Shown: positions 1 through 55,200 of the stretch, one piece after another
Layout of the letters: each line of letters starts with the position of its first letter
Numbering within the stretch: the stretch's first letter is position 1
Origin: an uncultured Chthonomonadaceae bacterium
GTDB taxonomy: Bacteria; Armatimonadota; Chthonomonadetes; Chthonomonadales; Chthonomonadaceae
DNA length: 56,718 bases
NCBI GenBank assembly: GCA_963835065.1
Contig: CAWIEK010000005.1
Location: 1-56,718 of the forward strand
Direction of reading: 5' to 3'
Made by a program: the position numbers and the translations under genes
The notes under the pieces: generated by a model
Database searches by the model: none
What the model was told of the DNA's origin: nothing
What the model saw: only the letters and a program-made list of their open reading frames with translations

Positions 1-540
1 CGTCATTTGTTTCTTCCCGGTTAAAAGAGGTTTACAACCCGAAGGCCTTCCTCCCTCACGCGGCGTCGCTGTGTCAGGGTTGCCCCCATTGCACAAGATT
101 CCTAATTGCTGCCCCCCGTAGGAGTCTGGGCCGTATCTCAGTCCCAGTCCGGCTGACCATCCTCTCAGACCAGCTACCCGTCGAAGACTTGGTAGGCCGT
201 TACCCCACCAACTATCTGATAGGCCGCAAGCCCCTCCAAAAGCCGCCACATCCACAGGCATTAGGCATTAGGCAAGAAACATTAGAAAAGAACAAGTCCT
301 TCTAATGCCTGGTGCCTGATGCCTAATGCCTGTTTTTTGCGCGCTTTACTCACCTCCCCATGCAAGGAAGTGGGCACATCCGGTATTAGCACCCCTTTCG
401 GAGTGTTGTCCCGGTCTTTCGGGCAGGTTGCTTACGTGTTACGCGACCGTTCGCCGCTAGGGATTGCTCCCCCGCTCGACTTGCATTTCTTAGGCACGCC
501 GCAAGCGTTCGTCCTGAGCCAGGATCAAACTCTCCATCAA
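1..540 (-). rRNA. rrs: 16S rRNA gene, 5' part (runs off window start)
   Basis: Reverse complement of AGAGTTTGATCCTGGCTCAG at 514..533, ACTCCTACGGG motif at ~115..125, and V1-V3 layout. Confidence 0.99.
254..333. repeat. Heptamer (AGGCATT/AATGCCT) palindromic insert in 16S helix 10
   Basis: ACAGGCATTAGGCATTAGGCA...TGCCTGATGCCTAATGCCTGT inverted arms. Confidence 0.9.
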
Positions 541-793
541 GTAAACCTGATGTAATAACTGACTGCCGAAACAATCAGATTGTGAACTGTTTTTGTTCGA
601 CCCGCCCGAAAGCGGATCAAACGAATCCTTGCTCGTTTCATTCCGCAGATGACCTTTCAGTCAACTGCAATTTCCGAAGTCACTATGGTACGTCAAGACG
701 CTTACACTCAAAGTCCACACAAAACGTCAAACGTGATTGTAAAGGTTCGTTTTGTTGTCGCGCTCACTTTGGAGTTCGTCGCGGCAACAATAT

Positions 794-822
794 AGTATGC
801 CACACTTCATTCCGTTTGTCAA
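794..822 (-). promoter_or_regulatory. rrn proximal sigma70-type promoter
   Basis: TTGACA(822..817)-17 nt-CATACT(799..794) upstream of 16S; boxA-like AACCTTTACAAT at 747..736. Confidence 0.65.
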
Positions 823-933
823 GGACGATTTTTGTCAGTATTTATCGCGCCCTGCTTTGCGAAACGGCTGTCTTTTGGGAAGTGGAAGACTGTCGGTTGA
901 CTGTTTTCGGCGTTCCTTCGTAGCAGCAGGATT

Positions 934-962
934 AATATACACCCTTGACTTTGATTTGTCAA
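934..962 (-). promoter_or_regulatory. rrn distal sigma70-type promoter
   Basis: TTGACA(962..957)-17 nt-TATATT(939..934). Confidence 0.65.
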
Positions 963-1021
963 GGGTGTATTCCAAACTTTTTGAATCGGCTTGCGGACTC
1001 ATCAAATCCGCTTCCATTTGG

Positions 1022-6248: not shown

Positions 6249-6368
6249 CAGGTTTCAGGTTTCAGGTTTCAGGTTTCAGGTTAGAATTGCCTGATTACTT
6301 TCTCCTGCTTCAAAGCACATTAAAGAAGAAATGCGTTCCTGACACCTGAAACCTGAAACCTGAAACCT
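6249..6368. repeat. Heptamer (CAGGTTT/AAACCTG) palindromic element
   Basis: About 5 units, spacer, about 4 inverted units; intergenic. Confidence 0.9.
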
Positions 6369-7565: not shown

Positions 7566-8120
7566 ACAGGACTCGTGCCTGAAACCGCCGCGCAGCAGGC
7601 ACAGGACGGCAACAGGCAAGGGACATTAAAGCTTAAGGAAGTGCAGCAGGAATACACCATCATTCCGAGGTTGCTGGAACGAGGTTCTGGTATAATTACT
7701 GTGTTCTGGAATCAATTGGGAACCACGAGTTGCCGGATGGTAGCCGGAAAAAGTGATTCCGGCGCGTATTTCTGCATACCTGATTCTTATTCCTCCTATT
7801 CATTCATAAATTTTTTACATTTAACTGGTAAATAGTGAGTCCAACTGAGTTCCAAGTGAGTTTAACGTTGCCCGAATCGCCGTTGCCATGAAACTTCCTG
7901 TACGAAGTTCCGTCTAAATATCGTCTCTATACTGAAGCATATCCACTTTCTTTCAGTTAGCCGAAAATAGCGATTGAACCTTGCGATTTGATGCCCCGCA
8001 ACATCTGCTGTATGAATCGGGCAGGCTGTGCCATAATGAAGAATATATCCGCGCTTGAACGGAAAATGGTTGATTCAAGATTTACCTCGGCATTGTTGAT
8101 TTTTGCAGGAGCGCCGCGCG

Positions 8121-9039: not shown

Positions 9040-9155
9040 GGGCGCGGTGTTCAGGTATTTGGGTGTTCAGGTGTTTGGTGTTCAGGCAATGCAAAATTTC
9101 TATGGGATGGAAGTATTTCCTGCTTCTGGATGGCTGTTTTGAAAAATTAACGGGC

Positions 9156-12000: not shown

Positions 12001-12296
12001 AAAAAAGAGCAAAATAACGCGAAACAAACGAACCCTTTGCCCCACACAGCCGTCTAAAGACTAGTACAAACGTCTACTATACAGACACGAAGGCTGAACG
12101 TTCGTAGTTCCTATCAACTATCAACTAGAACCCTAAAACCCTAACCCAGAAGGGAGGTGCAAAGTCCTATGTTTCACCCCTCCCGCTCGCCCTGACGCTT
12201 CCGAGGTCACGATGCCTCTCTTCTACAACCAGACACAACGAGACAGCGGGCTGGAAGCGCTGCATTGCCAAGATTTCGACGCTGCCTCTACATACC
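12001..12296 (+). other. Dispersed promoter + micro-ORF + conserved RNA cassette, copy 1
   Basis: Aligns with 44468..44695 (-); GAACC-17-GTCTAA, GGAGG, MFHPSRSP* at 12169..12195. Confidence 0.8.
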
Positions 12297-17120: not shown

Positions 17121-18731
17121 ATGGAACCCAATCGAACACTGTCCCGAAGATTAGACAGCGCGGCGTGTTATCAAGCGCTGCTTACGCACGATGCGCGTTT
17201 TGACGGCGTTTTCTTTGTCGGCGTGGCGACTACGGGCATTTACTGCCGTACCATTTGTCCCGCGCGAACGCCGAAACAGGAAAACTGCGCCTTTTACCCG
17301 AGCGCGGCGGCTGCGGAAAAGGCGGGATTTCGGCCCTGTCTGCGCTGCCGCCCCGAACGCGCGCCGGGAAATGCGGGCGTGGACGCTACAAGCCGCCTTG
17401 CCACCGCTATTGCCGGACGCATCGAAGACGGCGCATTGACCGAGGGGGGTGTGGAAACGCTGGCTTCGGAAATCGGCATCAGTTCTCGGCACTTGCGGCG
17501 CGTAATCGAAAGCGAATTTGGCGTATCTCCCATTATGCTGGCGCAAACGCAGCGTCTTCTGCTCGCCAAACGCCTGCTGACCGAAACCGGCCTGCCGATT
17601 GTAGACGTGGCGCTTGCCAGTGGCTTTTCCAGCCTCCGCCGCTTCAACGCTTTATTCAAAGAACGCTACCGCCTGAATCCCACTGAACTGCGCCGGGAAG
17701 AGAAAGAAGAAAAGGAGAAAAGGAGAAAAGGAGAAAAGGAGATGGAGGAGGAAAAAAGTGACGCGGCGCAATCGTCAATCGTTAATCGTCAATCGCCAAT
17801 TTCGTTGACGTGCGAATTGGCGTATCGCCCGCCGCTGGATTGGGAGGCGCTGCTGGCGTTTCTGGTCGGGCGGTCTTCGAGCGGCGTGGAAGCGGTTGAG
17901 GAGGGGCGTTATCTGCGCGCGGTAGGGATGGGCAAGCATCGGGGCTGGATCGCGGTTTCGCCTGTGCTGGAAAAACCTGCCCTGCGCGTGGAACTGTCGG
18001 CGTCACTGGCCCCGGTTCTCCTGCCTACTTTGGCGCGAGTCAAGAAGTTGTTCGATCTGGAAGCCGCGCCACAATTGATTGGCGACCATCTCGGCCCGAT
18101 TGCCCAAGCGAGGCCCGGACTGCGCGTTCCGGGCGCGTTCGATGGCTTTGAAATGGCAGCCCGCGCGATTTTGGGACAGCAGATCAGCGTTCGCGCGGCC
18201 ACCACGCTTTCGGGGCGATTTGCGGGCGCGTTTGGCGAGAAAGTGGAAACGCCGTTTGCCCGCCTGACTCACCTACCGCCGACTGCGGAGCGCGTTGCCC
18301 AAGCGGAAGCCTCGGAGTTGATTGCGCTTGGCATCATCACAACTCGCGCCAACTCCATTCTCACCCTTGCCCGCGCCGTCAATGAAGGCAGCATCAGCCT
18401 CCTTCCGGGGGCGGACGTGGAACAGACTATAACGCTGCTCAAAGCAGTTCCCGGCATCGGCGAATGGACGGCGCAGATGATTGCCATGCGCGCCCTTGCC
18501 TGGCCGGACGCTTTTCCGCATACGGATTTGGGCATTTACAAGGCGTTGGGCGAAACGAACCCGAAAAAGGTGCTGGCGCAAGCTGAAGCGTGGCGACCCT
18601 GGCGCGCATACGCCACCATGCACCTGTGGAAATCCCTGGAAAGCCCGCAAACACCCACGAACCGTTCGGAACCCGTAGCGAACAATTCCGCGACAACCAA
18701 TCCCGCGAAAACATTGGAGGCACAGCCATGA
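17121..18731 (+). CDS. alkA: Ada-AlkA fusion (Ada Zn domain, AraC HTH, 3-methyladenine glycosylase II)
   Basis: TTGIYCRTICP, FRPCLRCRP, AraC HTH, GIGEWTA HhH, WRPWRAYA. Confidence 0.92.
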   Translation: MEPNRTLSRRLDSAACYQALLTHDARFDGVFFVGVATTGIYCRTICPARTPKQENCAFYPSAAAAEKAGFRPCLRCRPERAPGNAGVDATSRLATAIAGRIEDGALTEGGVETLASEIGISSRHLRRVIESEFGVSPIMLAQTQRLLLAKRLLTETGLPIVDVALASGFSSLRRFNALFKERYRLNPTELRREEKEEKEKRRKGEKEMEEEKSDAAQSSIVNRQSPISLTCELAYRPPLDWEALLAFLVGRSSSGVEAVEEGRYLRAVGMGKHRGWIAVSPVLEKPALRVELSASLAPVLLPTLARVKKLFDLEAAPQLIGDHLGPIAQARPGLRVPGAFDGFEMAARAILGQQISVRAATTLSGRFAGAFGEKVETPFARLTHLPPTAERVAQAEASELIALGIITTRANSILTLARAVNEGSISLLPGADVEQTITLLKAVPGIGEWTAQMIAMRALAWPDAFPHTDLGIYKALGETNPKKVLAQAEAWRPWRAYATMHLWKSLESPQTPTNRSEPVANNSATTNPAKTLEAQP

Positions 18732-19447: not shown

Positions 19448-19566
19448 AAGGATGAAGGATGAAGGATGAAGGATGAAAACGGATTGTCAATCGCTATTTC
19501 CTTCAAGAAGGCAGTGTCCTATATGCCATACTCCATGACTATCTTCATCCTTCATCCTTCATCCTT
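19448..19566. repeat. Heptamer (AAGGATG/CATCCTT) palindromic element
   Basis: 4 units, spacer, 3 inverted units. Confidence 0.9.
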
Positions 19567-19582: not shown

Positions 19583-20569
19583 ATGCCGCAAATTGTCGTG
19601 GAAAACTTGCGCAAGACGTTTCAGGTTGCGGAACGGCAGGCGGGGATGTGGGGCGCGATTCGAGGGCTGGCGGCGCGGAAATATCGTACCGTAACCGCCT
19701 TGAATGACATTTCCTTTGCTTTGGACGCGGGAGAACTCGTCGGCTACATCGGGCCCAACGGCGCGGGCAAAAGCACGACGGTTAAGGCGCTGTCGGGCAT
19801 TCTCGTGCCGGATAGCGGGCGCTGCGAAGTATTGGGGTACGTTCCCTGGCGTGACCGGCGCGAATATGTCGCCCACATCGGCGTGGTTTTCGGGCAGCGA
19901 ACGCAGTTGTGGTGGGACTTGCCCGTTGTCGAGTCGTTCGATCTGTTGCGCGACATTTACCGGGTTCCCGCGCCGCAATACCGGCAGACGCGAGACGAAC
20001 TGATTGCATTGCTGTCACTTGCGCCGTTTCTGGACACGCCCGTGCGCCAACTCAGTTTGGGACAACGGATGCGCTGCGATCTGGCGGCGGCATTGATTCA
20101 CGCGCCGCCCCTGCTGTTTCTGGACGAGCCGACGATTGGATTAGACGCGGTTTCCAAATTGGCCGCGCGCGACTTCATCAAAAAACTCAACCGCGAGCGG
20201 GGCGTGACCGTGATTTTGACCACGCACGACATGGACGACATCGAAGCCCTGTGTACCCGCGTGATCGTCATCGGCAGTGGGCAAATTTTGTCGGACGGCA
20301 GCCTGGAGCATCTGCGGCAGCGCGTCACGCGGGAACGCTGGCTGATCGTTGACCTGGAAGAAGAACACGCCGCCATTACCGACCCGGACGCTACGGTACT
20401 GCGGCAGGAAGGGCGGCAAGTGTGCCTGCGCTTCGACCCGCAGCGCGTGTCCACCGCCGCCCTGATCGCCCGCATCACCTCGGTCTACAGCGTGAAAGAC
20501 TTGTTCGTTCAGAACCCGCCGATTGAGGAAATCATTGCGCGGCTGTACACACAGGGGAATGGTGAATGA
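19583..20569 (+). CDS. ABC transporter ATP-binding protein
   Basis: GPNGAGKST, LSLGQ, LDEPT, TTH. Confidence 0.93.
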   Translation: MPQIVVENLRKTFQVAERQAGMWGAIRGLAARKYRTVTALNDISFALDAGELVGYIGPNGAGKSTTVKALSGILVPDSGRCEVLGYVPWRDRREYVAHIGVVFGQRTQLWWDLPVVESFDLLRDIYRVPAPQYRQTRDELIALLSLAPFLDTPVRQLSLGQRMRCDLAAALIHAPPLLFLDEPTIGLDAVSKLAARDFIKKLNRERGVTVILTTHDMDDIEALCTRVIVIGSGQILSDGSLEHLRQRVTRERWLIVDLEEEHAAITDPDATVLRQEGRQVCLRFDPQRVSTAALIARITSVYSVKDLFVQNPPIEEIIARLYTQGNGE

Positions 20570-20620
20570 TGAATGATGAGTAATGAGTAGAATTCCATTC
20601 ATCATTCATCATTCATCATT
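20557..20620. repeat. Heptamer (GAATGAT/ATCATTC) palindromic element
   Basis: Inverted tandem units that supply the stop codon of the ABC ATPase. Confidence 0.85.
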
Positions 20621-24216: not shown

Positions 24217-26452
24217 TTATGGTTTTGGGGTGGTACGCTCTTTTGATGGCATGGGCAGGGTACGGACAAACGCCTCATCGTACTGACGCTGCGCCAATCC
24301 CAAATCTGCGCTTGCGCCGGTTTTGGACTGCGGCGCGGTGAGCGATTTATGTAGCGTTTCCCGCGCTTCGTTCCAGCGTCCCTGCCGATAGTACAAACCG
24401 CCAAGCTGCGACAGTCGGTACGAGTCCGCAAACCGGGCGATCTGCGCTTTGAGTACGGCTTCCTCTTCGCCATACAAGCCCGCATGGTCGCAGGCATACG
24501 CCAGCCAATCCCCGATGATTTGATCGGCGGGATTGACAACCAGCGAAGCGCGGTAATCCCCCGCCGCTTCCGCCCACCTGCCCAATGATTGGTACACGGC
24601 TCCCCGCGCCTGCAGGGTGTTGGACAGGTAGGGGATGTTGTTGTAGCGCAGGCTGCTGCCACTCGCGGCGCGGCGCGGCCAGTCGGGGGCGCGTCCCGCC
24701 CGCGCGATTTCCTCCGGCGTATGCGCTTCGGGAACCATTTGCCGCAGCATCTTGTTGTAACTTTCCAGCGCTTTGTCGTACTGGCCGCGCCCGTTAAACA
24801 CGTATGCTTCCCCACCCCGGGCGGGCGTAAAGTTCGGGTCGGCATGCATTTCCGCGTACATCAGCGCCATATCGTCGCGCCATTGCGGTATGTCGCCACG
24901 AGTGACAACGACAAATCGGACGCAGAACCCAACAAACACAAGCAGCAGCAGGCAAAATCCTGCCGGCACAAGCGGCGAATCTGCTGGCACGAGCGGCGAA
25001 GCGGAAGAATGTTTCCACGCCCACAGCCGCTCCAGACAACATGCGAACCCCGCGCCGAGCAGTCCGCACACGCCCACGAGCGGAATTGCCGCCCGGTAGG
25101 GCGCGACGAACTGCGATGGCACGGGAATGATGTTCAGGCACGGCAGCAATGTCAGCAACAGCCACAACATACAGAAACGGCAGGCGGCATTGCGCCAAAC
25201 CCGCGCAAGCAGCCACAAGGCAAACCCAAGCGCCAGATAGCCGCCTACCGCCACCCAAATCGGCGGCGGGGCAGGCAAATCCGCAGGCAGATTGCGGCCC
25301 AACGGCCCCACCGCCGCCCAATCCCACGGGCCAAGCGTGGACGCATGCATGTGGTCTACCGTCGGCCACAAAAACGAGCCGACAAAGTACCAGCACGTCC
25401 GCCCGATCATCTGAATATGCAGCGGGAAACTCCACAACGATGCCGAGAAGAACGAGCGCGTCGGATCATGCGCCATCTCCGTCAGCGAAACCCGCCGCGC
25501 CAGAAACAGATACGCGCCTATGGGGACCGCATACAAACTCAGCCACGACAGCCTGCGCCAATTCGTAAGCGGATGATGCATCATCAGCAGCAAAGGAGCC
25601 ATGAACACCATCAGCAAACATTGCTCTTTGGTAAAAATCGCCGCCGCAAACCCGCACAGCGACAAGAGAAACCAGAGAAAGGATGAAGGATGAAGGATAG
25701 AAGGATGAATCAGGAGTTGAGAGGGCATCCTCTTCTTCTGTCTCCTCTTCTCCTCCTCTCCTCTTCTCCCCCTCTTCCTTATCCCTTTCTCCTATTTTCA
25801 GCAGGCCGATAGCGAACAGGGCGAGGAAGATGAGCGCCATGTTGTCGGTACGGCCACCAATGAAAGTGGTGACGGGAACATGGAGGGGGTGCAGGGCGAA
25901 CAACGCGCCGCCAATGGCAGCGGGCAGATCGCGCCGGAACAGCAGGCGCAGCAGCCAGAAGACCAACAGCACCACGATGCCATGCTGAACCAGATTTTCC
26001 ACATGGAAGGGAAACGACTCGTCATGCCCGCTTTGCGGCGACACATGAAACCAGCGCTTGCCGAACACGAAACTGATGCCAAGCAGAGGCCGGTAATAAT
26101 ACAGCATCTGCGGGTGCTTGAAGCAGTCCCAGGCGTTCTCGCCGCAGCCGCGCGTTTGCGGGTCGTGCAGCCAGCCATGATCGTCAATGACCGCTTCCCC
26201 CTTCACCCCATCCGCCTGCAGCGCCATCGAAACCAGCGTCATCAGCAAGGCAAACAGATAGTAGAAGGTTGAGGGAGCAGAAAGTGATGAGTGATGAGTG
26301 ATGAGTGATGAATGGGATTCTAATTCATCACTCATCACTCCGCGTTCAGCATTGTCTTCTGTTCCCTGTTCCCTGTTCCCTGTTCCCTGCTCTCCCCTCT
26401 CCTCTTCTTCCTGTTCCCTGTTCCCTGTTCCCTGTTCCCTTTCTATGCTCAT
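24217..26452 (-). CDS. TMTC-like multi-TM glycosyltransferase with C-terminal TPRs; apparent frameshift at 25699
   Basis: DD motif, YYRPL, FALHPLH, GGRTD, KE, TPR helices; SD and ATGA overlap at 26452. Confidence 0.75.
26282..26440. repeat. Composite GGGAACA / TGATGAG heptamer arrays
   Basis: Tandem units at the 5' end of the TMTC-like CDS. Confidence 0.9.
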
Positions 26453-26900: not shown

Positions 26901-27119
26901 AATTAGCCGCGAATGAACGCGAATGAACGCGAATACAGGGATAATCTGCATACAAAGCAGAGCAGTGGAAAATGGCTGTTTGCCGTCAGCTTTCTGCTTC
27001 TATCTTACCGCTTAAATCGGTCACACCGAAGTGTCACGTTTGTATGTGCGTATTGTACGCCACTGGAAGCGTATTCTCCTTGCTAATTCGCGTTCATTCG
27101 CGTTCATTCGCGGCTAATT
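26901..27119. repeat. Inverted 10-mer (AACGCGAATG) arms
   Basis: AATTAGCCGCGAATGAACGCGAATGAACGCGAAT and its reverse complement. Confidence 0.9.
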
Positions 27120-27884: not shown

Positions 27885-30332
<2,448 letters not shown>

Positions 30333-34586: not shown

Positions 34587-36336
34587 TTAAAAACCGGCGG
34601 CGTGTCCATCTGTGCGCGGGTCGGAACCGCCCAAATACGCGCCGGTTTGCGGGTCAACGGCAATCAGTTGGTACGAACTGCTGTGTCCCCACGCGGGCAG
34701 CCAGTCTACGGCATGGCCGCGCGCTTCCAACTCCTCGCGTACCCCGGTTTCCATCCGCGCCTCCATCGCCAGCACTTCGCGCCCCGCCTCATCTTCAGCA
34801 TCCCCATCCCCATTTGTCACCACTTCGCCATGCTGCCAACGCGCCGCTTCAATCGCTTCCTGCGGGTTCATCTTATAATCAATGACGTTACAAATCACCT
34901 GCAAGTTGCTCTGAACCTGCACATCCGCGCCGGGAGTGCCGCCGAGGAAGGCTAAGGATGAAGGATGAAGGATGAAGGATAAATCAGGAGTTGATAGGTG
35001 ATAGGTGATAGGTGATAGGGCATCCGCTTCTGTTCCCTGTTCCCTGTTTCCTGTTCCCTGCTCTTCCGTCTTTCCTTCATCCTTCATCCTTCCGCCTTCA
35101 TCCTTTGTCACAATGTACGCATTCAGCGTATGCGCGGTGCGCTTGCCGGGAGCGAGGACGTTGGGATCATTCGGGTTGAGGGAAAAGCCGGTCATGCGGT
35201 TGTTGAACAGGATGCCGGTTTGGGGAACGATTACGCCGCTGCCCCACACGTAAAAGACGCTTTGTATGAAGCTGATGGCGTTGCCCTGCGCGTCGGCGAT
35301 GCAGAAGTACGTGGTGTCGTGGTGAATGTCGCCGGGGCGGGCGCGATTGGCGGCGTGGCGCAGGTCTATTTCTTTGCGGCGCTGGTCGGCGTAAGGTTTG
35401 GACAGCAGGGTTTCCATTGGCACGGACACGAAATTCGGGTCGCCTAAATACGCGGCGCGATCCGCAAAGGCCAGTTTTTTGGCTTCCACCTGTACGTGAA
35501 TGGCGTCCGCGCTGTTGTGGCCCATGCCGGCCAGATCGAAGCCTTCCACAAGGTTGAGTTCCTGAAGCAGAATATGCCCCTGCGACACGGGCGGCTGCCC
35601 ATGTATGGTGTAGCCGCGATAATCAGTACGGATTGGCTCCGAAATTTGGGTTTGATGATTGGCAAAATCCGCGGGCGCGAACAAGCCGCCGTTCGCGTCA
35701 CTGTATTCCAGACACGCGCCGGGTAATTTCGCCGTTGTAAAAAGCGTCGCGTCCGTTTTGGGCAATCTGGTTCAGCGTCCACGCGAGTTCGGGCTGGCGA
35801 ATGGTTTGGCCGGGCAGGGGCGGGGTATCATCCGGCAGCCAGATACGCGCGCTGTCGGGAAACGGGCGCAGGGTGGGCGCGGACAGGTGGCAGGTTCGCG
35901 CCATGCGGTAACTGAGCGGAAACCCCTCTTCGGCATAGCCAATGGCAGGCGCAAGCAAGTCGGCTACCGGCAGTTTGCCCCACTTCTCATGCAGCGCGAA
36001 CCACGTATCCACCAAACCGGGAACGCTCGCCGCTGCCAATCCACGCAGGGGGATGCCGTCCCCGAAATGTTCCAGCGTGGCGCGTTGGGGCGCGGCTCCG
36101 CTGCCGTTGAGCGCGGTTGTCTGCCCGGTTGTGGCGTCGTAAACGATCACGAACGCATCCCCGCCGATGTGACTGGCCGAGGGTTCCACAACCGCCAATG
36201 TTGCCGAGGTTGCCAGCGCCGCATCCACAAACGTGCCGCCGCGCATCAAGACGTTCAAGCCCGCCGAAACCGCAAGCGGCTGCGACGCCGCCGCCATGCC
36301 CTGCTTTGCCACCACCACGCCCCGATGCTGTGTCAT
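34587..36336 (-). CDS. Gamma-glutamyltransferase family protein (no signal peptide); apparent frameshift near 35711
   Basis: GGTFVDAA, IGGDAF, DTTYF nucleophile, GTPG, GSDPR. Confidence 0.85.
34954..35105. repeat. In-frame composite heptamer element in the second GGT gene
   Basis: (GGATGAA)n-(GGGAACA)n-(CTATCAC)n-(TTCATCC)n on the sense strand. Confidence 0.92.
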
Positions 36337-36657: not shown

Positions 36658-36715
36658 GAGTGATGAGTGATGAATGATGAGTGATGAGTAAGAAATCCGT
36701 TCATCACTCATCATT
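36658..36715. repeat. Heptamer (GAGTGAT/ATCACTC) palindromic element
   Basis: Inverted tandem units at a gene junction. Confidence 0.85.
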
Positions 36716-37273
36716 TGTAATGATCCGCGCCAGCGAAAACACCGTGCCCAGACACCAGCGGACGGCGTCTATGAGACGGTGGCGCGTGATGGTTTTTTGT
36801 TCGATGAAGTCGCCGTAGAACGGGTTTTGGTCTGCGTAACCGCCGAACTCAATCAGCGCGTCGGCAAAGACGGGCGGAACGCCCACGCCCAACGCAGTTA
36901 AAACGCGGGCAAAGAAGTCCAGCGCGTTGGCGATGATTTTGCGCTCGTCTACCGATTGCGATTGCAGCAGGAACAAAGTCTGCGAGATGTCAATCAGATA
37001 GACATTTCTAAGCGACAGTTCCCGAAATTCTGCCGCAATGTTCGCCGCGTTCAAAGCCGTTTGCGCAAGGCGGATGTCGGTGAACAAAATCACCTGTCCA
37101 TCGGCAATCAGGGGCAACATTTGCCCGTCCTGTTCAATCAGAAAGGTGAAAAAGTCGGGGCGGTCGCGCCTGCCGTCCAGTCGTAAGCCGGTCAGGAAGA
37201 ACGTGGCTCCGCCTGCCGTTGTTCCGCTGCCGGTTTCGGCAAAGGAAGGATTTTCGTGTTCGTCGTTGTGCAT
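36704..37273 (-). CDS. Hypothetical protein
   Basis: 189-aa ORF; stop codon supplied by the repeat. Confidence 0.6.
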   Translation of the reverse strand: MHNDEHENPSFAETGSGTTAGGATFFLTGLRLDGRRDRPDFFTFLIEQDGQMLPLIADGQVILFTDIRLAQTALNAANIAAEFRELSLRNVYLIDISQTLFLLQSQSVDERKIIANALDFFARVLTALGVGVPPVFADALIEFGGYADQNPFYGDFIEQKTITRHRLIDAVRWCLGTVFSLARIITNDE

Positions 37274-38857: not shown

Positions 38858-39492
38858 GGCGACCGTCTGCGTATGCAATACTACCATCGCTTGTCGTCAT
38901 GCTGTTGGGAATGGCGCAAGCGGTTCGCGCCGACCGCATCGTGCTTGGCCCGGACGGCGCGACGCTGGACCCGAAAGCGCTCAAAGCGGAGTTTGCGTTC
39001 ACGCCGTACCGCACGGAGCGCAATCTGAGCTGGCTGCAATACGCGCTGCCGCAGGGCATCGAAATTGAAACGCAGTTCAGCGACATCGCCAACAACAAGC
39101 GCACAGTCGGCGGGCTGGACGTGCAGTATCCGATCTTTTCCGAGTTCGGGCAGGTTCCGGCGATTTCCGTCGGAGTCCGCGATTTGTTCGGAACGGGAAA
39201 CGAACATCATTCGTTGTATGCCGCCGTCGCCAAATCGTTTCCTTTATCCGTTGACCAGTTGAAGTTCGCGCATGATTTTCACCTGACGCTGGGGTACGGC
39301 ACGGAGCGCCTGGATGGTTTTTTTGTCGGCGTTCATTCGCATTTGAAAGCCGGTTTGTTCGTAGACGCCGAAATCTACCGGCGGCGTCCCAATATCAGCA
39401 TCGCCCTGCCCCTCGTCCGCAACATGCGGGCGCGGGCTTACAGCCTTGACGGCAATATCTTTTATGGATTTTCGTATACCTTAGTGAGATAG
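38854..39492 (+). CDS. Exported protein, probable outer-membrane beta-barrel (YjbH-like)
   Basis: Signal peptide, PAISVGVRDL, alternating beta pattern, aromatic C-terminus. Confidence 0.55.
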   Translation: MRRPSAYAILPSLVVMLLGMAQAVRADRIVLGPDGATLDPKALKAEFAFTPYRTERNLSWLQYALPQGIEIETQFSDIANNKRTVGGLDVQYPIFSEFGQVPAISVGVRDLFGTGNEHHSLYAAVAKSFPLSVDQLKFAHDFHLTLGYGTERLDGFFVGVHSHLKAGLFVDAEIYRRRPNISIALPLVRNMRARAYSLDGNIFYGFSYTLVR

Positions 39493-39610
39493 TAGTCAGT
39501 AGTCAGTAGTCAGTAGTCAGTAGAACATCTATCTTGATTGCTTTGTTGCGCTTTGCAGGCAAGTAGGGAGTGGGTTTTCTACTGACTACTGACTACTGAC
39601 TACTGACTAC
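39490..39610. repeat. Heptamer (CAGTAGT/ACTACTG) palindromic element
   Basis: 4-5 units per arm. Confidence 0.9.
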
Positions 39611-39617
39611 TTCCAAG

Positions 39618-40825: not shown

Positions 40826-40942
40826 AGTAGTCAGTAGCCAGTAGTCAGTAGTCAGTAGAATTGCCTGCTTACTCTTCACTTATGCGACCTAATCAGTTTA
40901 CAAGGAACTTCTACTGACTACTGACTACTGGCTACTGACTAC
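40826..40942. repeat. Heptamer (CAGTAGT/ACTACTG) palindromic element
   Basis: Same unit as 39490..39610. Confidence 0.9.
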
Positions 40943-41325
40943 TTTTTTGCACTTTCCCCTTCCAACATATTGACTTAATCTTCTTTACAAGGCTACAATA
41001 GACAAGCCTCGCCCCGGCTGTTATCATTAGGCAGACATTTTGTGCTGAAGTGCATCTTCCGCGTGTACTCACCCATCCTAAACAAGTGAAGAATACGTCA
41101 CACTGATGAAAGAGGCTGTGGCACAGCCTGAAAACGTTTGCCGCAGGCGATTCGCCTGTGGAAAAACGACGCGCTTCCCGAACGCAATCCCCCTGAATGT
41201 TGTTGCGTTGTGTGGAAGCCAAAGCCGAACTTTATTCGGACGGTGAATAGTTGAAGACGAGAGCAGAAAATACCAAGCCCGGTTCTTTCGGCCAGGCCAC
41301 ACAATCTCTATCCCAAAACCACGCA

Positions 41326-43425: not shown

Positions 43426-43506
43426 GGGAGGGTGTTAGGTATTGGGTGTTGGGACAAGTCCTCCTACCCTCTCTCCATTTTGGAACTTCATGCCGACAAT
43501 GGACTT

Positions 43507-44918: not shown

Positions 44919-45150
44919 CCCCATTTTTGATTTGCAAACCCCTCTTTCCTCCGAAAAACCACTGCATTTTGCCTGTTTGTAAGGTATACTCCCTGTGATA
45001 AATTCTTTTTAAGGCAGGGACGACGTTGTTTTATCTCGTAACAACCGTCATTAAGCCCTGTTTCCCGCACACGCAACAGTCAATTTTTTACAACCCCCCG
45101 GCCTTGCGCTGCAAATTGTAGTTCGGTTGGTGAAGGAGATTTAACACGCA

Positions 45151-46155: not shown

Positions 46156-46161
46156 GAAATT

Positions 46162-46312
46162 TTCACCACAGAGGCACAGAGACACAGAGGGGTCACAGAG
46201 AAGAAGGGAAGAGAAGAGAACAGGTAGATGAGGAGAACACGCTATTTCGCGGTTTCTCTGCCTCTGGAATTCTCTCTGTGAAACCTCTGTGTCTCTGTGC
46301 CTCTGTGGTGAA
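46162..46312. repeat. Palindromic element TTCACCACAGAGGCACAGAGACACAGAG...
   Basis: 8-mer tandem arms in inverted orientation, 151 bp. Confidence 0.9.
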
Positions 46313-46342
46313 CGATTGCTTTTGAGCATGTAAGGACTGGCG

Positions 46343-47341: not shown

Positions 47342-47494
47342 TTCACCACCAAGACACCAAGTACACCAAGAAACTAGGGAGAAGAAAAAGAAAAGAAGAC
47401 AATATAGTTATAGCAGTGAAAGGGTGCTGCACCTTACAAGTATGTTCTCGTTTTCTTTTGTTTTCCTTGGTGTACTTGGTGTCTTGGTGGTGAA
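47342..47494. repeat. Palindromic element TTCACCACCAAGACACCAAG...
   Basis: 8/9-mer tandem arms in inverted orientation, 153 bp. Confidence 0.9.
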
Positions 47495-47497
47495 AAA

Positions 47498-48448: not shown

Positions 48449-48450
48449 AC

Positions 48451-49188
48451 ATGTCCGGGCAAACGGCTTCACCGGGGCAGGTAGCGATTTTGTTTGCGCT
48501 GCCGGAAGAACAAAAGCCTTTTGAGCGCGTCAATCCCGACGCGCGCATGTTTCGCAGCAGCAGTTCCGGGGCAGGCGCGAAAAACTCCCGTCATTCTGCG
48601 GCGCTGTTGCTTGGTAAAGTGGAACCGGCGCGAAATTCGGGATGTCGGGCGTTGTTGATTTGCGGGTTTGCGGGCGGGTTGGTAGATGGACTGACGCCCG
48701 GAACGCTTGTCATCGGCGACAGCGTGACCGATAGTCAGGTACGAGTATTGACGGCGGACTCCCGGTTGCTTGCAATCGCGGAGTCCGTTCGCTTGCCGGG
48801 TTGTGTCGCTATGCGGGGCACGATTTATACGGATAACAAGGTATTGACGCGCCGCGTGGAGAAACAAGGATTGGCGCAAAACCATGACGTGATTGCCGTA
48901 GATATGGAAACGTTTGCCGCCGCTGAAGTGGCGCAGGAAGCGGGCGTACCCTGGCTGGCAATCCGCGCGGTCACGGACGGCGCGACAGACGATATGCCCT
49001 TCGACTTCAACGCCATGACGGATGCGAATGGCAACGTCAGCAAAGGCCGCGTGATCGCTTCCGCCCTGACGCATCCCCGCCAGATTCCCGCCTTGATTCG
49101 CCTGGGCGCGCGCTCATCTTTGGCGGCAAAGAACCTGGCGCGGTTTTTGGAAGCGTACTTACAGGCATTGCCGGATGTAAACGGATGA
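48451..49188 (+). CDS. hpnG: Hopanoid-associated phosphorylase
   Basis: GFAGGL, VDME, RAVTD; cluster context. Confidence 0.8.
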   Translation: MSGQTASPGQVAILFALPEEQKPFERVNPDARMFRSSSSGAGAKNSRHSAALLLGKVEPARNSGCRALLICGFAGGLVDGLTPGTLVIGDSVTDSQVRVLTADSRLLAIAESVRLPGCVAMRGTIYTDNKVLTRRVEKQGLAQNHDVIAVDMETFAAAEVAQEAGVPWLAIRAVTDGATDDMPFDFNAMTDANGNVSKGRVIASALTHPRQIPALIRLGARSSLAAKNLARFLEAYLQALPDVNG

Positions 49189-49246
49189 ACAAGGGAACAG
49201 GAAACAGGGAACAGGGAACAGGGCAAAGAGGCGAGATGAGCGACGT

Positions 49247-50777
49247 TTGCGGCGTTCGGCAAAGTTTCGCGCGGCGCGGTGTCAAACGGATATTGGCGCG
49301 GCGCGACGGGCTGAACCCCTTCGCTGTATGGCCTGCGGCCCAGTGTCCTTCGGACACAACCTGTTGCTCAAAAAGTATTCTGTCCGAAGGACAGTCGGCA
49401 GAACGCCCTACAGCGAAGGGGTTCAGCCCGTCGCGCCTGCCAATATCCGTACTGCGACTCTCTTTATCTCTTATCTCTTATCTCTTATCTGTCTGTGGTG
49501 GATAGGGCCTCTTTGTCCCTGTCAGGCGCAGGAGAAGCCGTTGTCGCAGGCGGAAGCCGTGATGCTGGCGGTGCAGCACAGTCCGCAGGCGCGGGCGGCA
49601 AAAGCGGCGCGAGACGCGGCGCAGGCGCAGGCAGATCGGGATAAACCCGCCGCGCGCCCAACGCTGACGGCAACGGCTTCGGGAACGGCGCAGGGACCGC
49701 GCGTTGTCTTCCCGCGCCCCGATTACACGCCCGCAACCGTGCTGCCGGAAGGCGCGGCGCGGCTGGATTTGGTGTTGGAACAAATGGTTTACCGGGCGGG
49801 CATTGGGGCGGCAAAGCAGCGCTATGCGGCACAATCGGCATTGGTCACGGAAGATTATCGCAAAACCCTGTCGGATTTGGCGCTGACCGTTCGTAAAGCC
49901 ATTATGGATGTGCTGCGGGCGCAATCCGGGGTACGAACGGCGCAGGACGGATTGGACGCGGCCCTGCGGTATCAGCAAACGGTGGACGCGCAGATACGCG
50001 CCGGGGTCGCCAAGCCCGTAGACGCTGAAACCGTGATAGCGCAGGTGGCGGAAGCGCAGGAGGGCGTGGAAACCGCGCAGGGCGGGTTAAGCCTGGCGCA
50101 ATTCGCGTTCAACAAGGCCGTCGGGCGCTCACATCAATACGCCGGTTGCGCTGGAACCGTTGGGCGAATTGCCCGTTGTTCCCGCGACGCCCGATGCGGC
50201 GATTGCGTATGCGCTGCAAAACCGCCCGGAACTGATTTCTTTGGAATTGAATTTGCAGGCGGCAAGAGCGGGCGTCTCGCTGGCGCGTTTGCAGTCACAG
50301 CCCGTCGTTAATGCGCGGGGACAGTTTACGGAGCAGACGCCTACCGCTTTTCAGCACGAACACTATTATGGCGCAACGCTGGAACTGCGCTGGAACTTGC
50401 TGGACGGCGGCAAAGTTCAGCAGGACACGCGGGAAGCCAAAGCGCAGGTGGAGCGTTTGGAGGCACTGCGCGAAGACGCGCGGCAGGGCATCGCGCTCGA
50501 TGTAACGCAAGCCTGGCAGAAGATGCGCGATGCCAAAGCGCAAATCGGCCTTGCCCAAATTCGCGTTGCCGGAACGCAGGCGGTTGCCACCGTTGCGGAA
50601 ACTGCCTACACCGTCGGACGCGGTACGGCTCTAGAAGTGCAGGCCGCGCAGCGCGAAGTCCGTACCGCGCGGGAACGGGAACTGCAAGCCACGACCCAAC
50701 TCTATTCCGCTGCCATTGACTTCGCCCACGCGCAGGGCCGCGACATTCACGAGTTGGATGCGGTGATAAAGAAGTGA
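49247..50777 (+). CDS. TolC family outer-membrane efflux protein; start uncertain, apparent frameshift near 50131
   Basis: LSQAEAV.LA..HSP, ALQNRPE, WNLLDGG, two OEP halves. Confidence 0.75.
49300..49437. repeat. Inverted doublet of two-hairpin REP-like repeats
   Basis: GGCGCGACGGGCTGAACCCCTTCGCTGTA and its reverse complement; inner GTCCTTCGGAC/GTCCGAAGGAC. Confidence 0.85.
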
Positions 50778-50830
50778 TAAGTGGTAAGTGGGAAGTGGGA
50801 AGCGTTGAGGGTTGAGGGTTGAGCGTTCAG
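50772..50830. repeat. Heptamer array with drifting unit
   Basis: AAGTGAT AAGTGGT AAGTGGG AAGTGGG AAGCGTT GAGGGTT GAGGGTT GAGCGTT. Confidence 0.8.
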
Positions 50831-50865
50831 TACAAAGCGTTGAGAAGGATGCGCAGGTGGCACAG

Positions 50866-52198
50866 GTGAAAACAACACGCCTCTTCGCCAGCGGAACAGC
50901 CCTGGTCGCTGTTGCCGCCGCGTCCTACTTCCTGCTTCGCCCTCAACAGCAGGGGACAGGGAACAGGGAACAGGGAACAGCAGGAGAGAAGACAGGAGAC
51001 AGAAGACAGAAGGCAGAAGCCTCCACATCGAAAATCGAAAATCGAAAATCGAAAATCGAAAATTTCTCACCCCTCAACCTACTCGGCACGGTTCTGCCGG
51101 GTACGCAGGCGCAATTATCGGCGCGGCAGCCGGCGCGGATTACAGGCGTGTATGTAAAAGAGGGGCAGGCGGTGCAGGCGGGACAGCTTCTGGTGCAATT
51201 GGATGCGGCGGAAGCGCGGGCAGGCGAAGCAACGGCGCTGACGGCGGTTCGGACGGCGCAGGCGCAGGAAGCAAAAGCCCGCAGTGGACGCGTCGCGCAA
51301 TTGGTCAAGGCGGACGCGGATATAAAGAACCGCGCAGGCAGGTTTGGCGCAGGCGCAGGCGAAGCGGGGGCAGGCGCAATTGGGCGTACAGGCGGCGAAG
51401 GCAAGCGACCAGGCCGACCTGCAAACCGCGCAGGCTGCCGTTCGCAAGGCCGAAGAAGGCGTCAAAACCGCGCAAACGCAATTGCGCAGCCTGGAAGAAC
51501 TGGCGAAAGTGGGCGGCGTGGCGCGTAACGATCTGGAAGGGGCGCGAACACAGGCGCAAATCTCGCAAACCGATCTGGAAAGCGCGCGGGAAGCCGTTCG
51601 CCGCGTACAGGCCGGCCCGCCCGATCAGCCGGGAGTTTCGTTTCGAGTTGCCAACGCGCTTCAGGAGGCCAATCAAGCGCAAATCGGCGTCGCGCAGGCG
51701 CTCGCAGGCGTAAAAACCGCCCGTGACGCCCGCGCGCAAATCCTGAGTATCGCGGACGCCGACATCCGCATTGCGGAAGCGGCAACCGAACAGGCGCGCT
51801 CCGGGCTGGCAAGCGCAAGCATCGGGCAAACCATGTCCCGGCTTATCAGTCCCATCAACGGAATTGCGTCAAACGTCAATGCCCATGTCGGCGAAACCGC
51901 GCAGCCCGGACAGCCCTTGTTGACAATCTTATCGCCTTCCGGGGCGCGCGTGGAAGCGCTGGTTCCCGCCCGTCAACTCGCATTGCTGCGCGTCGGCCAA
52001 TCCGCCCGCGTCACGCTCGACACCCGGCCCAATCAGTCCTTGCCCGCTATCGTCTATTCCATCGCCGGTGTCGCGGAACCGGACGGGCGCGCGTTTCGCG
52101 TCACATTTCATTTTACATCGCCGCCCTCCGGCCTGCGCCTGGGACAGACGGCGCGCATAGCAATTAGGGAACAGGGAACAGGGAACAGGAAACAGTAA
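50866..52198 (+). CDS. Efflux RND periplasmic adaptor (MFP); apparent frameshift near 51327
   Basis: TM anchor, VKEGQAVQAGQLL lipoyl half, long coiled coil, SPINGI. Confidence 0.85.
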
Positions 52199-52283
52199 TC
52201 AGTTGTTGCGTGATGCTAAAGCGCATACAAGATGTAAGAGTACAGTTTCCTTTCTGTTCCCTGTTCCCTGTTCCCTGTTCCCT
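52166..52283. repeat. Heptamer (GGGAACA/TGTTCCC) palindromic element
   Basis: Arms span the MFP stop and end just before the RND start. Confidence 0.9.
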
Positions 52284-52286
52284 ATC

Positions 52287-55200
52287 ATGTGGTTCACCCG
52301 ACTAGCCATTGCCCGCCCGATACTTATCTGGATGGTCCTGCTCGCGATTGCGATCCTGGGACTGCTGGCGTATTTTCGCCTGCCTGCCGAACTCAACCCC
52401 CGCGTTGACATTCCTACCTTAACGATTACAACCGTCTATCCGGGAGCCGGTCCGCCCGAAGTGGAAACGCAGTTGAGTAAGCCGCTGGAAGAAGTAGTCG
52501 GGGCAGTGCCGGGCGTTCGGGACGTGTATTCCAGTTCGCAGGCCAATGTGTCGCTGATCAGCATGAACTTGCAGGTGGGCACGAATCTGGATGTCGCTTC
52601 AGCGAACGCGCGCGGGCGGATTGAAACGGTTCGGGCGCAGTTGCCGCCGGGCGCAAACGCCCCGGTTGTCGCCAAACTGGACCTCAACGCGCAGCCGATT
52701 TTATATTACGGCCTGACCGCTCCCTCTCAATCCGTGCAGCAGTTGCGCGTTCTGGCTGATGACACCCTGCGCCCCCGTTTGGAGCGCGTACCCGGCGTGG
52801 CAAGCGTACAGGTGTTGGGCGGCAGGAAGCGCGAAATCCACGTAGACGTAGATTCCCTGCGTCTGACTGCCAACCACCTGACAATGGAAGATGTGGTCAA
52901 CGCCCTCAAAGCGTCCGGGCGCGATGTTCCCGGCGGTGTCGTGTCGCAGGGCAACCGCGACACCGACGTGCGCCTGTCCGCTTCCTTCACCTCCCTCGAC
53001 ACGATCCGAAATACGCAGATTTTAGGGAACAGGGGACAGGGAACAGGGAACAGTCTCCCCCCAACACCCAACACCCAATACCCAATACCCACCCCTCCCC
53101 TGACAATTGCCGATGTTGCCGACGTGACCGACGCTCTGGCCGAGCCTGCCAGCGTGAACCGGATTAACGGGCAGGCGGGGGTTAGTTTGGTGCTGCTGAA
53201 ATCGCCGGATTCCAGTACGGTGACGGTGGTAAACGCGGTCAAGCAGGAACTGGCTTTGCTCACGCCGGACTTGCCGAAGGACTTGAAACTGGTTGTCCTG
53301 CGCGACGATGGGGCAACCGTCAGCGAAGCCCTGAGCGATGTGGATACCAGCCTGGTGTTGGGCGCGCTGCTCGCCATTGTCGTGATTTTGCTGTTTCTGC
53401 ACAATCTGCGTGGCACGTTTATTGTCTCGCTTGCTATTCCCGCCTGCATGGTGGCGACGTTTCTGGTGATGTATCTGGCGGATTTTACCCTCAATCAAAT
53501 GACGCTGCTGGCGTTGTCGCTGTCGGTCGGGATTCTGGTGGATGACAGCATTGTGGTGCTGGAAAGCATTACGCGGCATTTGAATGAGGGCGAGTCGCCC
53601 CAGGAAGCGGCCATTAATGGACGGGCGGAAATCGGGTTCGCGGACATTACGACGACACTGGTAGATGTCGTTGTCTATGTGCCGATTGCGTTCATGGGCG
53701 GCATTGTGGGCGGGTTCTTCAAGCAGTTCGGGTTGTGCATCGCCACCGCAACCCTGTTTTCGCTTGTCGTTTCGTTTTCACTGACGCCGATGCTGGCGGC
53801 GCGCTGGTACAAGAAGGGCGAAAATCTGGAGAAAAAGCGCGGCCTGTACGCGCTTCTCGACAGGCTGTTTCTGGCCCTGCAAACCCGTTATCGCCGCGTG
53901 ATTGGCTGGGCCTTGCGCCGCCGCTGGATTGTGCTGCTCGTGAGCGTACTGGCGCTTGGCGGGATATTTGCGATTGCCTTTACGCATTTGGGGTTTGAAT
54001 TCCTGCCCGGCTCGGATCAGGGGCAGATCGCCATCAGCATCGAAATGCCGCCCGGAACCGGTTTGGATGCGACCACGCAGGCGGCGCAGAAGGTGGAGCA
54101 GGCGATAGGACAGCGCCCGGATGTACTGGCGTCCGTAACAAACGTGGGGCAGATTTTGGGTGGGTTCGGTTCCATTCCGCAGCAGGGAGCGCAGTACGCG
54201 CAAATCAACCTGCGGCTTGTGGACAAGACAACCCTTCTTGATCGATTCCGCCATTCCAGTCAGCGATTGCGCAGTCAAACCGATCAGGAGATTACCACGC
54301 AGTTGCGCAAGCAGTTGAAGCCGCTGGAGCGAACATTGGGCGGCAAGGTGAGCGTGTCTTCGGTGCGTTCGGTGACGGGCATTTCGCTGCCGGTCAACAT
54401 TCAAATGCGCGGCGCGGACGTCAACCAACTGACCCATTTTGCCGAACAGGTGCGCGACGAGCTGCAAGCCATGCCGGAACTGCTCGACCCGGACGTGTCC
54501 ACGCGCAGCGGCAAGCCGGAAGTGCGCGCGCAGATAGACCCGGTTCGCGCGGCGCAATTGAACGTTCCCCCGTCCTTTGCGGGCGCGATTGTGCGTGACG
54601 CCATTGCGGGCAACACGGACGCCGTTTATCGAGATACCAGTCAGGGTAACGAGTTTCCCATTCGGGTGCGGCTGGCGGATGTGGATCGGAACGACCCCGC
54701 AGACGTGGGAAACGTGGTTGTGAGTTATGATACGGGCGGCAACCCCATCGCCCTTGCGGACGTGGCCGACATAGAAACCGAAAGCGGGCCGAGCGCCATT
54801 GAGCGCAACAACGGACAGCGCATGGTCACGGTCACGGCCAATCTCGCGCCGGGTATTCCTCTGGGCAACGCGCAGCAGCTCATTCAGCGCAACGTTTTGG
54901 ACAAACTGCCCCACCCCAACATCAATATCCACTGGAGCGGCGAAACTGAAACCCTCAACGAAAACGCCATACCGTTCGCAACCGCGCTGATTTTGGCGGG
55001 CATACTCGTGTACATTGTAATGGCATCTCTGTTCAACAACTTGGGAACGCCGTTCGTGATTATGTTCGCGCTCCCGATGGCTTTAGTGGGCGCGTTGGGC
55101 GCGTTGGTAATCACGGGCGAAACCATGTCGCTGATCGCGGCAATCGGCATTATCATGCTCGTCGGCCTGATGGGACGCAACGGCATTCTGCTGCTCGACT

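Follow-up and report, generated by a model that had tools for sequence, protein, structure and literature searches.

Short tandemly repeated repetitive (STRR) sequences of cyanobacteria are known heptamer repeats. Inverted pairs of GGGAATC heptamers are described in Xanthomonas and GGGGA(C/T)T repeats in Nostoc (Rehm et al. 2015, PMC4692102), and paired 'global regulator binding sites' in Geobacter metallireducens (Aklujkar et al. 2009, PMC2700814). Here we examined a 56,718-nt stretch of DNA from an uncultured Chthonomonadaceae bacterium (GenBank assembly GCA_963835065.1, contig CAWIEK010000005.1, positions 1 to 56,718; hereafter the window), in which a preliminary description made from the letters alone had noticed about 20 loci of tandem 7-mers, often as inverted arms around a spacer. 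The family was followed through the source assembly (G000; 8.0 Mb in 71 contigs, 92% complete) and through sequence from two congeners, 1.8 Mb out of 7.5 Mb for G002 and 0.6 Mb out of 6.6 Mb for G001. Its members are dispersed hairpins of ~120 bases that replace one another at fixed sites. We lean towards reading them as gene-less, non-autonomous relatives of cassettes that carry a PF05635 gene, with a predicted PF05635 pentamer binding one repeated core per subunit.

The comparisons that follow refer to the accessible portions of the cited reports. The Xanthomonas and Nostoc repeats resemble ours in having a period of 7, in being dispersed and mostly intergenic and transcribed, and in forming many convergent inverted pairs. 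There, however, each genome has one unit, interpreted as a G-quadruplex motif, and the accessible text makes no link to a mobile gene, whereas here the unit families number 33 and mostly lack G runs, arm length follows a five-core rule, and occupants are replaced at fixed sites. In Geobacter, class 3 sites are opposite-strand pairs of five tandem heptamers, classes 1–2 have four octamers or three repeats, and the proBA gap holds another sequence in a sister species. Those sites number dozens and were read as targets of an IHF/HU-type regulator, with no PF05635 or GxxExxY link in the accessible text. TAACTGA repeats of Beggiatoaceae have also been published, in an article whose accessible part mentions neither 'helix bundle' nor 'intervening' (PMC4679880).

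Intervening sequences of rRNA, some with an S23p/PF05635 open reading frame (ORF), are long hairpins that sporadically replace 16S or 23S helix tips, the PF05635 protein being encoded in the hairpin loop (Warrier et al. 2016, PMC4990558); Xcc0516 is a toroidal homopentamer (PMC4990558). Here, by contrast, five gene-less inserts come from a family of more than 1,000 loci lying mostly in mRNA, the cassettes are in operons, and no rRNA insert contains a PF05635 ORF. REPIN/RAYT systems (repetitive extragenic palindromic [REP] doublets forming hairpins, with REP-associated tyrosine transposases; Bertels and Rainey 2011, PMC3116915) likewise combine inverted doublets and a poorly conserved spacer with a rare gene flanked by its own repeats, in several families per genome. 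Our arms, unlike theirs, are tandem arrays carried by no HUH transposase; many lie in genes and rRNA, and occupants swap at fixed sites. Ssn nucleases, whose small gene is flanked by its own NTS/SRM hairpin repeat with hundreds of copies (Chenal et al. 2025, PMC11893778), offer a model for GxxExxY genes, but are of the GIY-YIG fold rather than PD-(D/E)XK and, as far as described there, have neither tandem arms nor a pentamer partner. Avd, from diversity-generating retroelements (DGRs), is a basic pentamer without catalytic function; all five of its protomers bind a single RNA stem-loop, and it enables a partner enzyme (bioRxiv 10.1101/2023.10.23.563531). The PF05635 protein is predicted to have the same fold, but identity is 10%, NF033474 gave 27–33 bits against a cut-off of 80, and beside the PF05635 genes lies no reverse transcriptase (RT), template or variable repeat, the RTs being on other contigs. 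By analogy our elements may work as REPIN/RAYT or Ssn/NTS systems do, while apparently belonging to neither REPINs, MITEs (miniature transposable elements with inverted repeats) nor DGRs.

Paired heptamers and S23p-bearing rRNA inserts were already known, separately. We found no paper joining PF05635 or GxxExxY genes to flanking tandem arms, in a search outside which lay most subscription papers and some supplements. G000 contributes its scale, a five-core rule that applies at two periods and a count of site replacement; it also brings arms in chimeric form under protein-level selection, five inserts in rRNA and a co-occurrence pattern of two genes.

Heptamer arrays and arm anatomy

Tandem Repeats Finder (TRF) reported a period-7 array at 19 of the 20 loci first listed for the window; at the other, 43430, a degenerate GGGTGTT-type arm is visible in the sequence. 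At least 12 units had been claimed; we counted 18 unit classes in 37 period-7 arrays, a density about double the G000 mean. Genome-wide, TRF found 2,758 period-7 arrays with 153 units, ~1 per 3 kb. Perfect arrays of at least three copies numbered 1,330, against 0 and 0 in two local trinucleotide shuffles of G000; at periods 6 and 8 there were 32 and 123. Such dispersed period-7 tandem arrays beyond chance place the elements among heptameric simple sequence repeats and STRRs. Inverted pairing was also confirmed, with 570 pairs within 200 nt compared with a mean of 52.7 and a maximum of 71 in 50 label permutations.

For further work arms were catalogued with 33 left-arm units, picked largely from inverted pairs, giving 2,170 arms in 1,380 loci. 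Polarity was nearly absolute: 544 loci ran left-right and 2 right-left. Of 699 single-arm loci, 404 were truly solo; the partner was degenerate in 174, and in 121 a further array lay inward of the arm. Paired loci are inverted doublets that form hairpins around a variable spacer, as in REPINs, and their arms are terminal inverted repeats, as in MITEs. Spacer lengths peak at 50–65 nt. The two arms also mirror each other's variants; in 328 elements the partner had the complementary change in 140 columns (~3 expected), and 263 changes were one-sided. Compound loci are mostly mosaics of unpaired arms joined via recurring linkers.

Arms of 30–33 nt made up 1,213 of 2,266, flanked by secondary peaks at one unit less and one unit more. 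This length is four units plus a fifth core, so that a core stands at both start and end. Tandem-like AG runs at period 7 (n = 1,682) had five cores in 978 cases, four in 413 and six in 206. The period-8 family AGAAAAGG peaked at 35 nt, again five cores (20 of 65 arms in G000; 20 of 42 at 35–36 nt in G002), evidence that the number of cores, not the length, is conserved. AG is found in 23 of the 33 left units and in 1 of their 33 reverse complements; YRR, found in 31 of the left units, also occurs in 77% of random heptamers, leaving AG as the informative core. Across 15 AG-phased families A varied 1.4% and G 0.4%, compared with 3.3–6.7% at the other five positions, and among the matches listed from other genomes only cores were conserved within an arm, the units being mixed. 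Left arms are rich in G and poor in C, though the GGG run that defines G-quadruplex heptamers is confined to some families and missing from the most abundant units (AGTTGAT, AGGCATT, AGTAGTC and AAGGATG).

A second family, overlooked in the preliminary description, has three-copy arms of period 8–10 (in the window at 26908, 46163 and 47344), occurs around GxxExxY genes and uses the same sites. The 7-nt period once thought fixed is therefore dominant only, since period-8 arms and these three-copy arms share its geometry and sites. The unit is not hypervariable either: 33 families hold 2,432 of the 2,758 arrays, the AG core is kept, and the unit tracks the PF05635 subfamily (see below). As to the idea that geometry and not sequence is conserved, geometry is indeed kept while the occupant of a site changes, but unit sequence is constrained.

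Replacement at orthologous sites

We located 177 orthologous sites in G002, of which 100 held a 7-mer array, 15 a period 8–10 array and 62 none; an array was thus present at 115 of 177, compared with 7 of 81 array-free G000 control junctions. Among the 100 7-mer sites the unit was the same in 11, one mismatch away in 16 and different in 73. Where both genomes had a full element (26 sites), spacers were no more alike than random (median −0.32 vs −0.26; none of the 26 above 0.2). Elements at shared sites nonetheless begin in nearly identical register. The unrelated spacers and differing units indicate that sites persist while their occupants are replaced.

Empty alleles, which the preliminary description had proposed to look for, were found: 42 of the 177 G002 sites lacked an array and were at least 40 nt shorter. 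Inside genes, filled and empty lengths differed by a multiple of three in 8 of 10 cases. No target-site duplication was seen; in 331 elements direct flank matches equaled those of swapped-flank controls, which sets the family apart from MITEs. In relatives at ~95% identity contigs break at heptamer elements.

Most spacers are unique. Of 14 near-identical spacer pairs listed, 11 were rejected as element copies because they share at least one flank and are segmental duplications; 3 have unrelated flanks. One pair identical at 53 of 54 positions between differing flanks is evidence of whole-element copying, and the AGTAGTC family has further pairs at 85–87%. Single arms are exchanged too, judging from the mosaic compound loci and from one GxxExxY cassette in which the left arm alone was replaced.

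PF05635 and GxxExxY cassettes

The preliminary description had proposed looking for a gene family repeatedly enclosed by the arms, and named four-helix-bundle genes as one candidate to test. That was the right lead: all three PF05635 genes of G000, which lie outside the window in operons on contigs C8, C25 and C33, are between inverted arms, by eye and by score threshold alike. They score above the curated cut-off for PF05635/TIGR02436 (four helix bundle protein), and no further PF05635 copies or fragments were found in G000. A PF05635 protein has no known catalytic site, however, which makes it a candidate binder and not the enzyme. Its invariant residues include R41, R42, K63 and R65. A monomer model of the C8 protein (pLDDT 93.6) matched five-chain Xcc0516 and BT_0352 (structures 2gsc and 2rld), with E 9e-8 and TM 0.85 for Xcc0516; the match to Avd was weaker. 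The C8 protein is thus modelled with the fold of a solved pentamer, and the pentamer itself is a prediction.

G000 also has three GxxExxY nuclease genes (TIGR04256/PF13366, with D75, E85 and K87 conserved), all three between inverted arms by eye and one by score threshold. Other ORFs enclosed by paired arms were few and unrelated, with no recognised transposase among them (by inspection, not Pfam). Three-copy arms enclose what we take to be a PemK/MazF-like ORF (G000:C59:31863-32657) and a nucleotidyltransferase-like ORF (C70:4879-5638).

Two other candidate movers were rejected. The four PF01797 matches to Y1/RAYT transposases are flanked by other palindromes or longer tandem repeats, with no heptamer arms, and both RTs are at other loci, outside cassettes. 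As separate observations, a RAYT-like Y1 gene at G000:C49:523763 is flanked by tandem 17–18-base repeats, another pairing of gene and tandem arm; one RT is group II-like and beside a Cas1-like gene (G000:C49:681456-683452), the other retron-like (C50:52482-53912).

The enclosure extends well beyond this genome. Within the order, arms were paired at 20 of 22 PF05635 loci (period 7 in 14, period 8 in 6) and at 11 of 16 GxxExxY loci, mostly with period 8–10. Further afield, 80 loci of each gene were fetched. Of the PF05635 loci, from other phyla, 74 were usable and 34 were paired (swapped-flank control 8.6); of the GxxExxY loci, 65 were usable and 38 were paired (control 2.9). Arms at these distant loci have period 7 and a mode of five copies around PF05635, and period 8–10 and three copies around GxxExxY. 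Relatives of PF05635 in viral contigs were few (5, 0 and 1 loci). The unit co-varies with the protein subfamily. Unit distance rises from 1.68 to 3.66 mismatches as PF05635 identity falls (76 of 106 loci with a readable unit), a trend that persists without the C8 subfamily, and 41 of 54 C8-type homologues have a unit within two mismatches of AGTAGTC, compared with 3 of 17 others.

Cassettes alternate with gene-less elements at common sites. At two sites of PF05635 cassettes in G002, G000 has a gene-less three-copy element at one and an AGGCATT arm with other cargo at the other, and the site of the G000 C8 cassette holds a short relic in G001.

Co-occurrence within the phylum

We scored both genes in 160 genomes of the phylum, at least 90% complete, and counted matches to a five-core pattern, summing all four count columns; the reversed control was included in the sum since it catches TGA/CGA-core families. 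The share of genomes with at least 10 matches was 32/39 where both genes occur, 11/28 where PF05635 stands alone, 2/16 for GxxExxY alone and 5/77 without either; for at least 50 matches the numbers were 19, 2, 1 and 2. Permutation within families left the link of PF05635 with load intact (0 of 20,000), and the effect of having both genes held in three size classes (interaction t = 2.9, kinship uncorrected). G001, a single genome, fits this: it has six GxxExxY matches and no PF05635 match, and its arrays are fewer and decayed (52 per Mb, 3% perfect, compared with 344 per Mb, 38% perfect).

Placement and host selection

The preference for stop/start junctions and tolerated loops of genes and rRNA, already described for the window, holds genome-wide. 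Of 355 simple intergenic elements, 266 start −15 to +10 nt from a stop codon; among intergenic bases free of arms, only 3.8% fall in the 10 nt that follow a stop (an interval not identical to the former). Flanking genes were co-directional at 314 of the 355, against 3,103 of 4,407 background gaps, and simple junction elements span from the stop codon to 9–20 nt before the next start.

Our own hexamer model called 5,995 genes in G000. Inside them were 541 of the 2,170 arms, about a quarter of all arms thus being translated, and 523 of these have a unit without stop codons when read in the sense direction. The orientation inside genes appears usually to be the one encoding a hydrophilic peptide. 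Left-right loci in genes comprise 79 non-complementary chimeras and 14 true hairpins. In-frame inserts of the window are in DNA ligase, gamma-glutamyltranspeptidase, Ada/AlkA and an AcrB-family protein.

In rRNA genes there are five elements, all gene-less and of four unit types, two in 16S and three in 23S. Like rRNA intervening sequences they are long hairpins that replace helix tips and are sporadic among relatives. At the window's 16S site (254..333), 218 nt separate the anchors, compared with 126–136 in 13 more distant relatives, and G002 has an AGATATT-type element in the same register. The others, at G000:C51:114802-121113 and C49:338082-341304, occupy the tip of 16S helix 44, where G002 has a period-8 element, and three 23S places, one of them presumably helix 45. 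A short helix-44 allele on contig C37, full of single-base deletions, was set aside as evidence; it may be a long-read hairpin artefact or a deletion.

Host selection filters the elements, as seen in the stop-free arms inside genes, the position from stop codon to ribosome-binding site, and the use of rRNA helix tips. Selection on an mRNA helix was rejected, G-U mismatches on the sense strand not being favoured over A-C (66 vs 102, p = 0.007). G000 is an extreme case, with an array every ~3 kb, translation of a quarter of its arms (DNA ligase included) and five rRNA inserts, and it shows the reshaping of operon junctions, protein loops and rRNA.

Proposed mechanism and alternatives

The elements are likely selfish, and a small protein whose predicted form is a ring of five parts likely aids their spread. 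A dedicated trans-acting copying mechanism had been suggested from the window, and we infer one as well. A gene-less five-core hairpin would be recognised by a PF05635 pentamer, one subunit per core; that the pentamer recognises an arm at all seems to us fairly probable. A nuclease would then cut, and the element would be pasted over the resident one, whole or arm by arm, via a DNA or RNA intermediate and without target duplication; on cutting and pasting of this kind our judgement is evenly balanced. The co-occurring GxxExxY PD-(D/E)XK protein, supplied in trans, is a tentative candidate for the cutting nuclease. Host selection would then sort the products, and rRNA and mRNA copies would be excised by RNase III (putatively; its gene is present in G000).

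In its boldest form the proposal is of a widespread two-protein class of selfish DNA, in which an Avd-like pentamer reads five purine cores at 7–8-base spacing and, helped in trans by a GxxExxY nuclease, writes over the hairpins resident at operon junctions, coding loops and rRNA helices. We regard this as doubtful in its entirety. If true, the bacterial heptamer excess, many intervening sequences in rRNA and peptides of low complexity (QGTGNRE and SSFILHP, for example) would stem from this class, and two old puzzles, heptamer excess and the function of the S23p/four-helix-bundle protein, would merge into one question. A programmable, duplication-free replacement system would interest tool builders.

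Several observations weigh against descent of the hairpins from PF05635 cassettes and their spread by its protein. To our knowledge PF05635 has no catalytic activity. G000, at 92% completeness, has 33 abundant unit families but only three PF05635 genes, and no cassette matches the AGGCATT and AGTTGAT families, abundant though they are. Spacers are not internal deletions of a cassette, as their similarity to cassette interiors was not above that of shuffles, and shared spacer ancestry was found only in the AGTAGTC family, one of five tested. Evidence of whole-element copying is sparse, and these genome comparisons caught no movement in progress. Some empty alleles keep a relic of another arm and can be deletions, and deletion or a long-read hairpin artefact may account for some of the empty sites. 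The five-core rule is blurred in places: around distant PF05635 genes an arm can have anything from 3 to 15 copies, and all period-8 AG runs taken together are less sharp in G000 (101 four-core, 108 five-core; 17 and 45 in G002). Co-variation of unit and protein could be plain co-descent. In the survey, whose pattern detects some unit classes only and whose genomes are related, 24 of 67 PF05635-positive genomes had fewer than 10 matches and 7 of 93 PF05635-negative genomes exceeded that threshold, two of them with hundreds or dozens (G041, which lacks both genes, has 286); the two genes would also be found together in a host that is permissive in general.

Arms could instead be a host regulon. 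A domesticated RNA-binding pentamer, or some other host factor, would bind them to govern translation coupling or the processing of mRNA at operon junctions; function would preserve the sites, and ectopic gene conversion, in place of selfish spread, would renew their sequence. Site reuse far above chance (115/177 vs 7/81), the 314 of 355 simple elements between co-directional genes and the presence of RNase III agree with this, and regulatory readings were proposed, in the accessible portions of the reports, for the TAACTGA repeats (PMC4679880) and the Geobacter paired sites (PMC2700814). Yet arms occur in coding loops too, where the chimeras do not pair (79, against 14 hairpins), and at five rRNA positions, PF05635 cassettes are at different sites in congeners and were not found in G001, and the excess of A-C over G-U mismatches is the opposite of what selection on an mRNA helix would leave. 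We consider a regulon improbable. A dedicated factor would be superfluous if polymerase slippage made the arrays, template switching mirrored the arms and selection retained what was tolerated, with PF05635 and GxxExxY genes hitch-hiking. Mirrored variants and the lack of target duplication would follow, and most spacers being unique and an empty site that is a tiny palindrome at the stem base (C30:45645) fit as well. Slippage gives no sharp five-core length at two periods, however, and leaves unexplained the conserved cores in mixed-unit arms, in-register whole-element replacement, identical spacers at unrelated sites, and units that follow protein subfamily across phyla, making this very improbable in our view.

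We give little credence to a retro-element route, by which a hairpin cut from transcripts would be loaded by the pentamer on an RT, as Avd does, and cDNA pasted at transcribed junctions. It draws on the fold shared with Avd, whose pentamer binds an RNA stem-loop according to the accessible text (bioRxiv 10.1101/2023.10.23.563531), on the strong bias to transcribed junctions and rRNA, and on the two RTs of G000. Neither the Cas1-adjacent group II-like RT nor the retron-like RT adjoins a cassette, though, asymmetric spacers are 50:50 relative to transcription, and the phylum survey, which scored PF05635 and GxxExxY, points to a nuclease.

Elements of the window and neighbouring features

Elements mapped in the window are given in Table 1. 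The one at 39491..39611 had an RNA fold z of −10.2.

Table 1. Heptamer and related elements of the window, with the occupants of the same sites in congeners G001 and G002
Position	Strand	Element and context
254..333		AGGCATT-type hairpin in 16S rRNA gene (16S minus strand, 1-540)
6249..6368		AGGTTTC-type element, 55-nt spacer, from DNA methylase stop to oxidoreductase start
9046..9086	+	Period-8 single arm (GGTGTTCA) following stop codon
9786..9835		CTATCAA right arm and degenerate left arm, end of BlaI-like gene
12100..12144	+	CTATCAA and period-8 right arms within another dispersed repeat; none in G002
17703..17800	+	In-frame chimera in Ada/AlkA: period-8 left arm, CAATCGT right arm
19448..19566		AAGGATG-type element upstream of ABC ATPase gene
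20557..20620		AATGATG-type element, short spacer, overlapping ABC ATPase stop codon
25679..25775		Compound element in frameshifted membrane/TPR gene; other arms at G002 site
26283..26440		Compound element: AGTGATG pair and two CTGTTCC arms; minus-strand frame open; other arms in G002
26908..27112		Three-copy period-10 element, GxxExxY type
28566..28722		In-frame compound element in NAD-dependent DNA ligase; ~20 nt left in G002
34954..35105		In-frame compound element of four arms, in gamma-glutamyltranspeptidase; G002 has other arms, G001 is 111 nt shorter
36658..36716		AGTGATG-type element, short right arm, at stop codon
39491..39611		AGTAGTC-type element, five cores per arm, 55-nt spacer; AGGGAGT type in G002
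40826..40943		AGTAGTC-type element, both arms with mirrored variant unit
43430..43478	+	Degenerate GGGTGTT-type arm after squalene-hopene cyclase stop codon; missed by TRF
46163..46311		Three-copy CACAGAGR element (GxxExxY type); CACCAAG type in G002
47344..47492		Three-copy CACCAAG element; CACAGAGR type in G002, empty in G001
49187..49490		AGGGAAC left arm, TCTCTTA right arm, RAYT-type palindrome pair inside
50771..50827	+	Two left arms (GAAGTGG, GTTGAGG) at stop codon
50950..51063	+	In-frame chimera (AGGGAAC, AGAAGAC, ATCGAAA) after hydrophobic N-terminal segment; other arms in G002
52166..52283		AGGGAAC-type element before AcrB-family gene; AGGGAGT type in G002, AGAAAGG type in G001
53024..53091	+	In-frame non-complementary chimera AGGGAAC + CCCAACA inside AcrB-family gene; AGGGGTC + CTATCAA in G002

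The window holds several other repeat types. Copies of another high-copy dispersed repeat are at 12050-12240 and 44470-44690; genome-wide, heptamer arms lie inside several copies, and the G002 counterpart is without them. Palindromic CATGATT/CAGGATT elements with 9–10-base periodic arms (16921-17015 and 30338-30435; 162 pattern matches genome-wide) are of a type that also flanks a GxxExxY gene in G001 (L110). The palindrome pair at 49302-49433 resembles the flanks of a RAYT-type Y1 gene on contig C51, a classical REPIN nested between heptamer arms. Another family of short REP-like palindromes is found at gene ends (11865-11930, 14930-14990 and 31240-31300), and an inverted pair of ~45-nt palindromic repeats unrelated to heptamer arms lies upstream of a radical SAM gene (44725-44920).

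Several genes are split by apparent frameshifts (8103-9039, 9905-11844, 24217-26632, 49247-50777 and 50812-52198), which are probably indels from long reads; in G002, ligA too is out of frame where the element sits. A stand-alone TnpB (Cas12f-like) gene of the IS200/IS605 family lies just upstream of the 16S region (1712-2764). The hopanoid cluster at 41326-49188, with genes for squalene-hopene cyclase, radical SAM DUF3463 protein, epimerase, LytB/IspH and phosphorylase, has elements at four junctions. Near the end of the window are two adjacent modules that we take to be ParD/ParE-like antitoxin-toxin pairs (55554-56573), after which the contig tip duplicates the end of the AcrB-family gene.

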